From contig CALUHR010000013.1 of the NCBI GenBank assembly GCA_944320495.1, positions 487,931-551,930 of the forward strand: a DNA stretch of 64,000 nucleotides, written 5' to 3'. Shown here in pieces: positions 54,992-57,485 of this stretch. Origin of the DNA: Candidatus Methanomethylophilaceae archaeon. Lineage in GTDB: Archaea > Thermoplasmatota > Thermoplasmata > Methanomassiliicoccales > Methanomethylophilaceae. The notes beneath the pieces were generated by a model, which saw only the letters and a program-made list of their open reading frames with translations, was not told the DNA's origin and made no database searches. Position 1 is the stretch's first letter. The number at the start of each line of letters is the position of its first letter. The position numbers and the translations under genes were made by a program.

Positions 54992-55219
54992 TGATTTCCT
55001 CCAGGCTGGCATCGTGCCGTCGAGTTATAACCGTGATGGCCTGTCCGGGAGGTCGGGAGCAAGCCTCCGTCCCTTTCGCGGGGACGTCCGTCGGGGACCG
55101 CGGGTCCTGGGTCACACCCAGTTCCCGGGGAAACCCGCGAGCGGCGCCGTGCGCGCGCCCGTCGCATCCCGACGCTAACCCTAATAAACGTCACGGCGAT
55201 GGCCGAGCCAGGTTATTCC

Positions 55220-56239
55220 ATGGCTAAGGTCAGGGTTGGAGTCAACGGTTACGGCACTATAGGCAAGAGGGTGGCCACGGCCATCGCCAAGCAGGACGAC
55301 ATGGAGCTCGTGGGCGTCACCAAGACCAGGCCCAACTACGAGGCTCTGGACGCGCTCTCGAAAGGATACGGCCTCTACATCCCCGAGGAGAGCGTCGAGG
55401 CCTTCGAGAAGGCCGGCGTGAAATATTCCGGCACCATCAAGGACATGCTCGGCAAGGTCGACATCGTCGTCGACTGCACCCCCGGCAACGTCGGGGAGTA
55501 CTATAGGGACATGTACAAGGCCGCCGGCGTCAAGGCCATCTTCCAGGGCGGGGAGGAGCACAGCCTCACGGGCATTTCATTCAACTCCACCGCCAACTAC
55601 GCGGAGTCCTGGGGTGCGCCCATGTCCAGGGTCGTCTCCTGCAACACCACCGCTCTCCTGAGGACCCTCTATCCCATCGACAAGGCGCTCCGCATCAAGA
55701 ACGCCTACGTCACGATCGTCAGACGCGCGGCGGATCCCGGCGACAGCAAGGGCGGCCCCATCAACGGCCTCGAGCCCTCCGTCAAGCTCCCCACGCACCA
55801 CGGCCCCGATGTGCAGAGCGTCATGCCCTGGCTCAACATCAACACCATGGCTGTGAAGGCGTCCACGACCCTCATGCATGTGCAGACGGTCGTCGCCCAG
55901 CTCTCCCAGCAGACCACCACCGAGGAGGTCCTGGACATCCTGAGGCAGGCCCCCAGGGTCAGGCTCGTGAAGAGCTCGGACGGTATCAAGTCCACCCCGC
56001 AGATCATGGAGCTGGCCCGCGACCTCGGCCGCGACCGCTCCGACATGTACGAGATCGTCGTCTGGGAGGACGGCTTCAAGGTCGTCGGCGACACGCTGTA
56101 CTACTACCAGGCGGTTCACCAGGAGTCCGACGTTGTGCCGGAGAATGTGGACTGCATCAGGTCCATGTGCAAGATGATCCAGGATCCAGCGGAGTCGGTC
56201 GCCAAGACGAACGCCTCCATGGGTATCGGGAAGAACCGA
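55220..56239 (+). CDS. gap: Glyceraldehyde-3-phosphate dehydrogenase (archaeal type II)
   Basis: VGVNGYGTIGKRVA, VVSCNTT, THHGPDV, HQESDVVPENVDCIR, KTNASMGI. CGA at 56237-56239 gives 339 aa; canonical stop at 56545 lies inside pgk. Confidence 0.93.
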
Positions 56240-56249
56240 GGTCTGGGAC

Positions 56250-57485
56250 ATGGACAAGCAGTTCAACACGCTCGAGGATTTCGACTTCAGGGACAAGACG
56301 GTCCTCCTCAGGGTGGACATCAACTGTCCTCTCGACAAGAAGACCCTGAAGATCGTCAACGACGCCAGGATCAGGAGGATAGTCCCGACGGTGCGCGAGC
56401 TCGTCGGCAAGCGCGCCCGTCTGGTCATACTCGCGCACCAGAGCCGCAAGGGCGGATGGGACTTCATCCCCCTCGAGCAGCATGCGGAGCTTCTGTCCAG
56501 ACACCTCTGCATCCCGGTCAAGTACGTCGACGACGTCATCGGTGAGAAGGCCGTGGAGGCCATCAAGGACCTCGAGCCGGGACAGGTCCTCCTGCTCGGC
56601 AACGTCAGGGAGCTGGACAGTGAGACCGCCAAGGGCGACATGGACATGCACGCCAAGGGCGAGATCGTAACCACCCTGGCGCCACTCATTGACTACTACG
56701 TCTGCGACGCGTTCGGGGCCTCCCACAGGTCGCAGTGCTCGCTCGTGGGCTTCGAGGCCCGTATCCCTTCCGCATCCGGCAGGCTGATGGCCAAGGAGCT
56801 GTACGCACTGGACGCGATCTTCGGGGATCCCCGCAGGCCGTCCGTGTTCATCCTCGGAGGGGCCAAGTTCGGCGACGTCTCCGAGATGATCGATAGGGTC
56901 CTCGGCAGCGGCATGGCGGACACCGTAATCCTTGTCGGCCTCGTGGGCAACGCGTATCTGCTCGCCCGCGGCGTCGACATCGGCGAGGCGAGCAGCAGGG
57001 TCCTCCAGGACGAGCTGACGCCCGAGAACCTCCAGGCCGCCAAGGACATAATGTCCAAGTACGGACAGAGGGTCCTCCTCCCCGTGGATGTCGCGGTCGA
57101 GAGGGACGGGAGGCGTGTCTCGGTGAACATCGGCGACCTTCCCACGGCGGAGCCGGCGCTGGACATCGGCGACGCCTCCGCGGAGAAGTTCCGCAAGGTG
57201 CTCCTCTCGTCGAAGACGTGCTTCATGTCCGGCCCCGCCGGGATGATCGAGAAGGAGGGCTTCGAGGTGGGCACCCGTGTGATCATGACCGCCATGGTCG
57301 ACAGCGGTGGGCAGTCCGTCATCGGCGGCGGTCACACCGGGGGAGCCGCGGAGAGGTTCGACCTCGCCGACAGGTTCTCCTACGTGAGTACGGGCGGAGG
57401 CGCTCTGGAGACCTTCCTTCTCGGCAAGCCACTGCCGGTCATAGAGGCGCTCAAGCGCTCGAGGACCGAGTTCGGCAAGCCGTGA
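56250..57485 (+). CDS. pgk: Phosphoglycerate kinase (archaeal)
   Basis: LRVDINCP, LAHQSR, DAFGASHRS, GGAKF, GGGHT, STGGGA. Confidence 0.93.
   Translation: MDKQFNTLEDFDFRDKTVLLRVDINCPLDKKTLKIVNDARIRRIVPTVRELVGKRARLVILAHQSRKGGWDFIPLEQHAELLSRHLCIPVKYVDDVIGEKAVEAIKDLEPGQVLLLGNVRELDSETAKGDMDMHAKGEIVTTLAPLIDYYVCDAFGASHRSQCSLVGFEARIPSASGRLMAKELYALDAIFGDPRRPSVFILGGAKFGDVSEMIDRVLGSGMADTVILVGLVGNAYLLARGVDIGEASSRVLQDELTPENLQAAKDIMSKYGQRVLLPVDVAVERDGRRVSVNIGDLPTAEPALDIGDASAEKFRKVLLSSKTCFMSGPAGMIEKEGFEVGTRVIMTAMVDSGGQSVIGGGHTGGAAERFDLADRFSYVSTGGGALETFLLGKPLPVIEALKRSRTEFGKP

Follow-up and report, generated by a model that had tools for sequence, protein, structure and literature searches.

CGA as the likely terminator of a type II GAPDH gene, and as a candidate fourth stop codon, in a genus of gut archaea

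Where does the GAPDH gene of this archaeon end? The gene (gap) lies immediately upstream of pgk in the window, by which we mean the whole 64,000-nucleotide stretch of Candidatus Methanomethylophilaceae archaeon DNA that was analyzed (genome G000, C13:487931-551930). As we read it, its coding sequence runs from 55220 to 56236 on the plus strand, comprises 339 codons without a single internal CGA, and is followed in frame by a CGA at 56237-56239. A spacer of 10 nt (56240-56249) separates this CGA from the pgk ATG at 56250, and the plus-strand letters of the junction are ...AAG AAC CGA GGT CTG GGA C ATG GAC AAG.... Under the standard code the GAPDH frame does not end here but continues to a TGA at 56543-56545, lengthening the product by 102 residues and creating an overlap of 296 nt with pgk; translation with table 11 thus gives an open frame of 441 or 448 residues. 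The preliminary description had placed the end of GAPDH at the CGA, 10 nt before pgk, with a product of 339 residues and a 296-nt overlap for the longer frame. All of these positions and lengths proved exact.

The ATG at 55220 is the true start of GAPDH, as judged from conservation across 19 congeners: the N-terminal sequence M-A/S-K-V/I-R-V-G-V is conserved in all 19 congener loci, and no such conservation is seen for the ATG further upstream, at 55199. An A/T-rich box, TAATAAA (55182-55188, plus strand), is a candidate archaeal TATA element of a gap-pgk operon, its function being inferred; such a box is found about 32-40 nt 5' of the conserved ATG in 19 of 19 congeners. A Shine-Dalgarno-like AGGT (55210-55213, plus strand) lies 6 nt 5' of the start and is kept at the same spacing in 18 of the 19 loci, the remaining one (L006, from G004) having AGGG. 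Downstream, pgk (phosphoglycerate kinase, 411 aa) occupies 56250-57485 on the plus strand and stops at TGA. It is identified by its ORF and by a PGK profile match spanning residues 6-404; its N-terminus is conserved in congeners, and GC3 in its frame is 0.90. GAGGT (56238-56242, plus strand), a Shine-Dalgarno-like motif that we assign to pgk by inference, overlaps the CGA. Folding of the gap-pgk junction revealed no special RNA structure (z = 0.15), a scan for bacterial promoters and terminators, which is unsuited to archaea, found none, and an exact look-up of the 448-, 441- and 339-residue products in a protein collection gave no match.

Homology to known GAPDHs stops at or just before the CGA. 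The region 55220-56236 is assigned to a type II (archaeal, phosphorylating) GAPDH on the basis of profile matches, the conserved start and the chain lengths of PDB entries. The NCBIfam type II GAPDH profile NF003251 scores 485.1 bits (cut-off 185) over residues 3-339 of the 441-residue reading and is covered from position 2 to 340 of its 343; TIGR01546 scores 445.7 bits (cut-off 232.9) over residues 6-336. The archaeal GAPDH chains 1cf2, 2czc, 2yyy and 1b7g, which are 334-343 aa long, align up to query residues 336-338. The translation contains VVSCNTTALLR, whose SCNTT we take to be the catalytic cysteine motif, and VNGYGTIGKR, an N-terminal dinucleotide-binding glycine motif of the GxGxxG type, which we take to bind NAD(P). 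The protein thus matches archaeal type II GAPDHs over their full length, is equal to them in size and shares both motifs; the sole difference lies in the terminator, CGA here vs TGA or TAA there. The length expected of type II enzymes (about 335-343 aa, with a C-terminus soon after KTN..(L/M)GI) is met only if the CGA ends the protein.

Of 6,289 database homologues the 120 best were compared in length, and about 115 of these have 335-349 aa. Those that do not include a 441-aa cluster (29 members, 96% identity) and, from a MAG, an NCBI protein of 367 aa. The names carried by the nearest database proteins put the organism in Methanomethylophilaceae. In the DNA of both, which come from independent public assemblies, the first CGA is at codon 340. 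The 367-aa protein (L121; NCBI GCA_017958805.1, JAGDBZ010000173.1) is annotated as overlapping the PGK gene by 83 nt, and its 28 extra residues start at the CGA of codon 340, a concrete case of misannotation caused by the code.

The continuation of the GAPDH frame beyond the CGA (56240-56545, plus strand) is considered non-coding, an artefact of standard-code annotation, from its GC3, its coding log-odds and its identity among species. In G000, GC3 drops from 0.93 to 0.32 across the CGA, and the coding log-odds per codon are -0.81 for the tail vs +0.59 for the gene. The tail is rich in Arg, Gly, Gln and Pro, with a pI of 11.8. Five species of the genus have a CGA at this place, and their standard-code tails are 101, 211, 97, 440 and 78 codons long, hold 2-25 further CGAs (8 in G000), and have a GC3 of 0.32-0.43, compared with 0.88-0.99 for the last 100 GAPDH codons and 0.88-0.97 for the pgk frame. 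Over the same 231 nt, amino acid identity to G000 is 100, 84, 78, and 79% in the pgk frame vs 87, 61, 60, and 51% in the tail frame. The pgk frame alone is under selection in the overlap, and the tail frame is not. The preliminary description had spoken of about 100 junk residues, and had stated that archaeal type II GAPDHs are about 335-340 aa long and end shortly after KTN..LG. Both statements held, the first for 102 residues found non-coding by the composition and identity tests, the second, as to length, in the PDB chains and the best homologues described above.

The same codon position was compared in congeners. The genus offers 19 species for this purpose, among which the gap-pgk junction is collinear. 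GAPDH codon 340 is CGA in five of them (G000, G018, G010, G001, and G003) and TGA in the other 14; the aligned TGA in congeners, together with the drop in GC3, is the evidence for assigning a terminator role to the CGA at 56237-56239 (plus strand). The congeners have TGAGGT or TGAGGN at this point, so a T-to-C change of the first base leaves the Shine-Dalgarno-like motif whole, and a motif of the GAGG(T) type 3' of the GAPDH end is kept with either CGA or TGA. The GAPDH tree places the CGA species in two clades, each with its own support and each shared with TGA species, so that at least three interchanges between TGA and CGA are implied. The codon is not otherwise favored in these genes. The 15 conserved Arg columns of the five GAPDH genes with this CGA comprise 75 Arg codons, not one of which is CGA, and six of the 15 columns vary in codon between the five species, whereas codon 340 is CGA in all five. 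Given this absence at conserved Arg positions, the occurrence of CGA at codon 340 exceeds chance.

Two other loci deserve mention for their own sake. In G017 (L014, G017:C11:1-3507), the pgk frame after the GAPDH TGA reads GGT GGG AAC ACG TCC AAG; it is without ATG, GTG, or TTG, and ACG stands in place of the ATG with which congeners start. In G027, a species of another genus, a bacterial-type (type I) GAPDH (MPLRVAINGFGRIGR...) is located between the type II GAPDH and pgk (L020, G027:C2:133430-137443), so that both GAPDH types are present in one cluster.

The behavior of CGA at gap recurs across the genome. We examined codons that follow 40 stop-free codons with GC3 of at least 0.85, and scored a collapse when GC3 of the next 40 codons was 0.65 or less. 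Collapse was seen behind 58% of CGA codons (390/672) and 60% of TGA codons (842/1409), compared with only 11-25% behind the other rare sense and arginine codons tested. When genes were modeled with four stops, using a codon model in which CGA was scored neutral, 1496 models were obtained in G000, ending in TGA (1088), CGA (353, or 23.6%), TAA (38), and TAG (17); the 58 gene ends in the window are 43 TGA, 14 CGA, and 1 TAG. Such models are partly circular for counting ends; the GC3 and orthologue tests are not. In nine CGA-ended genes in the window, every Pfam domain lies 5' of the CGA. In strongly coding context CGA is used at 0.24 per 1000 codons, and it occurs only twice in 37,207 well-aligned codons, one of the two being at an Arg of the release factor aRF1. 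Since TTA and CAA are also very rare, the rarity of CGA is not decisive by itself.

Orthologues support the same reading. The comparison was made with 400 kb of G024, an outgroup of another family whose 41.5% G+C makes the GC3 collapse test inapplicable to it. Of 174 genes aligned to near the outgroup C-terminus, 27 meet a CGA before the canonical stop. When these 27 are ended at the CGA, the median offset to the G024 gene end is 0 codons (IQR -1 to 2), as for genes that meet a canonical stop first; when they are ended at the canonical stop, it is +24 (IQR 8.5-111.5). Within the genus, 400 kb of G015 was compared: opposite 43 CGA-ended G000 genes, the aligned G015 codon is TGA in 21 cases and CGA in 2, the other 20 being sense codons, and opposite TGA-ended G000 genes it is a stop in 146 of 206. 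G015 has few CGA ends, yet CGA is stop-like there as well (11/19). The paucity of CGA ends in G015 indicates that replacement of TGA by CGA has gone furthest in the high-G+C lineage of G000.

The sequence that follows a terminal CGA also has a character of its own. The +4 base is T after 56% of CGA ends vs 29% of TGA ends, and is G after 20% and A after 7% of CGA ends; the GAPDH CGA, with G at +4, is thus in a minority context. A context of CGA followed by CU, of the read-through kind, is not discriminating, being rare after CGA (0.8%) and TGA (1.0%) alike.

Several genome-wide observations stand apart from the question of the GAPDH end. In G000, TCG is the next codon after 14.7% of terminal CGAs, which creates the palindrome CGATCG. 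The median gap to the next same-strand gene is about 520 nt after CGA-ended genes vs 74 nt. The second well-aligned in-frame CGA, besides that of aRF1, is in a plus-strand ORF of G000:C8 (55276-55840 in script coordinates; FTGKTI-R-PFCTNE), where it is aligned with a Val of the outgroup; it could be a second read-through site, a pseudogene or an error. TAG is rare as a gene end, both in the genome (17/1496) and in the window (1/58). The rarity would be compatible with the use of pyrrolysine in the order, which remains only a possibility; ARAGORN did not find a tRNA with a CUA anticodon in the assembly, which is 90.6% complete.

How might CGA be decoded? G000 has one aRF1 gene (C2:85942-87135, minus strand), situated outside the window; a Pelota-like paralogue was a weak second match in the same search. 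Only one codon of the aRF1 gene is CGA, and it occupies a conserved Arg position (SIAA-R-LKTYK). Of the 17 congeners from which the gene was recovered, 16 have retained this CGA and G005 has AAG, and the same position is CGC, CGT, CGG, AGA, or AGG in 12 of 12 outgroups. Beside the NIKS loop, aRF1 carries substitutions fixed in the genus, QASNIKSKTTMK vs the outgroup QSSNIKSK(S/G)TRK-like sequence. The evidence that aRF1 recognizes CGA is indirect, consisting of there being a single aRF1 and of the substitutions that flank NIKS; recognition is likely by inference and has not been demonstrated.

The cognate tRNA has been retained in altered form. All five Arg tRNAs are present in G000, including tRNA-Arg(UCG), and the latter was found in every congener searched in which there was a match. 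The search relied on a covariance model, for which a rod-like RNAalifold structure (R1) was dropped in favor of a cloverleaf (R2); a degenerate pattern search for the anticodon arm in five genomes returned only noise. The tRNAs of 12 congeners and of G017 carry a mismatch at 31:39 (A.A, C.A, or U.C) below a covarying 4-bp stem, and those of a subclade (G008, G007, G015, and G005) combine C33 with a mismatch at 27:43. The outgroup tRNA-Arg(UCG) has a normal 5-bp stem and U33. Retention of the tRNA under selection probably means that CGA is still read as Arg at some rate, and aRF1 seems to need this; both points are inferred.

Three other explanations of the locus need to be considered. The one that is hardest to set aside holds that CGA is effectively unreadable, a "hungry" codon, at which stalled ribosomes are freed by a rescue pathway rather than by aRF1; the GAPDH product would still be of 339 residues. 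The impaired look of the tRNA-Arg(UCG) anticodon arm and the presence of a Pelota-like paralogue, weak match though it is, speak for it. Against it, we infer that having to rescue ribosomes at one gene in four would carry a high cost, and that the +4 preference after CGA (T in 56% vs 29% after TGA) and the genus-specific changes by NIKS fit factor-mediated termination better. We regard this explanation as very unlikely.

A second possibility is that the code itself is standard and that CGA is converted to UGA in the mRNA at gene ends. A single C-to-U change would be enough, and changes of this type generate stop codons in plant organelles; the possibility cannot be excluded from DNA alone. An editing target set by nucleotide context, however, would be chosen irrespective of reading frame, which is not what is seen. 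Off-frame CGA is abundant and not depleted inside gene models (NCG|A 7,844, O/E 0.88-0.95; NNC|GA 31,350). Avoidance of CGA is thus specific to the frame, so an editor would have to pick some 350 sites singly or know the reading frame, and this points to the ribosome rather than to a sequence-specific C-to-U editor. That aRF1 contains an in-frame CGA, and that tRNA-Arg(UCG) is under selection, also imply that unedited CGA reaches the ribosome, at least there, and no structure stands out at the junction. Editing, too, is very unlikely.

The third is the standard code, with CGA read as Arg and GAPDH bearing a tolerated basic tail of 102 residues across the pgk start, a stop-loss allele. In its favor are the open 441/448-residue frame under table 11, the tRNA-Arg(UCG) gene, and the 441- and 367-aa GAPDH forms annotated by public pipelines. 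It is nevertheless very improbable: the tail varies from 78 to 440 codons among species and its frame is without selection, one and the same codon would have had to lose its stop on three or more occasions, each time becoming CGA, the least used Arg codon, and the same accident would be required in about 350 other genes. Sequencing or assembly error as the source of the CGA was rejected, the codon being present in five species and in independent assemblies. A 48.3-kDa protein, site-specific editing, and stalling with rescue are thus all unlikely, but sequence data do not close any of them.

The explanation we prefer is that GAPDH has 339 residues, about 37.0 kDa, and is terminated at the CGA at 56237-56239. 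This is likely but is inferred from DNA only, there being no protein, Ribo-seq or RNA evidence. More generally, this archaeon and the other species of its genus are likely to use CGA as a fourth stop codon, in addition to TGA, TAA, and the seldom used TAG; the comparative pattern has been demonstrated, the mechanism only inferred. The 441/448-residue table 11 ORF would then be an annotation artefact, which we also consider likely. In the proposed mechanism, the single class-I release factor aRF1, with its genus-specific changes by the NIKS codon-reading loop, would recognize CGA and release the chain, the retained tRNA-Arg(UCG), with its weakened anticodon arm, being a poor competitor. The ribosome would then initiate pgk 10 nt 3' at the ATG whose Shine-Dalgarno-like GAGGT overlaps the CGA. 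Some low-level read-through of CGA is possible and is not excluded, the tRNA having been retained. The preliminary description had interpreted the locus in the same way, as a GAPDH that ends at CGA and not as stop-loss, and every comparative and compositional test supports it, termination itself remaining an inference. Its suggestion that GAPDH would be a good experimental test case also held: the enzyme is well known, the candidate products differ by 11.3 kDa (37.0 kDa, pI 6.3, for 339 aa vs 48.3 kDa, pI 9.0), and the tail peptide GLGHGQAVQHAR is diagnostic of the read-through form.

Sense codons that have become stops are familiar from organelles (NCBI tables 2, 22, and 23): AGA and AGG in vertebrate mitochondria, TCA in Scenedesmus, and TTA in Thraustochytrium mitochondria. 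To our knowledge, there are no accepted sense-to-stop code changes outside organelles. As in the organelle codes, the former sense codon is gone from gene interiors and marks ends where relatives use standard stops. Two of the criteria for such a change, absence of the codon from conserved sense positions and its occurrence at gene ends where homologues have standard stops, are met here; a third, loss of the cognate tRNA, is not. Unlike the organelle cases, the organism is a free-living (gut) archaeon with a 1.8-Mb genome of 62% G+C, the codon concerned is CGA, its cognate tRNA has been altered but not lost, and one in-frame CGA persists in the release-factor gene.

In the literature searched, we found no account of CGA as a stop in Methanomethylophilaceae. 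A 2026 preprint reports that CGA is absent from recognizable domains in two hydrothermal-vent archaeal assemblies, and its author raises the possibility of an archaeal stop, with no test of gene ends (bioRxiv 10.64898/2026.04.02.715157). Those archaea are unrelated, with about 50% G+C, no tRNA(UCG), and CGG reassigned to Trp; here, by contrast, tRNA(UCG) is present and gene ends have been tested directly. A parallel for the tRNA is tRNA-Trp(CCA) with a 4-bp anticodon stem, which changes stop-codon reading in Blastocrithidia and Condylostoma (PMC13092985). In both cases a codon has changed in meaning and the tRNA associated with it has a conserved 4-bp anticodon stem. The short stem of tRNA-Trp(CCA) enables a near-cognate tRNA to read a stop codon; here it is the cognate tRNA, with its 31:39 mismatch, that would be weakened relative to the release factor, although the direction of the effect is inferred and not established. 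For aRF1, the parallel is bacterial prfB, in which a +1 frameshift at an in-frame UGA makes the synthesis of a release factor responsive to its own stop signal. The aRF1 mRNA likewise holds an in-frame copy of the codon at which the factor terminates and, by analogy, could sense the level of the factor. Unlike in prfB, the event would be read-through by a tRNA, not frameshifting, as far as can be inferred.

These points can be joined in a bolder reading: CGA would be a true fourth stop read by aRF1 throughout a genus of free-living gut methanogens, the weakened tRNA-Arg(UCG) would be kept so that the CGA in the aRF1 mRNA serves as a feedback sensor, and gap would supply the first direct proof at the protein level, given the 11.3-kDa difference between its two possible products. 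We incline to this joint reading, though only by a narrow margin. GAPDH is abundant and well understood and has two distinct candidate products, so one protein measurement could decide whether the code has changed. If it has, this would be the first cellular organism known in which one gene in four ends at an arginine codon, and the standard annotation of these genomes would be wrong for hundreds of proteins, the 367-aa GAPDH of GCA_017958805.1 among them.
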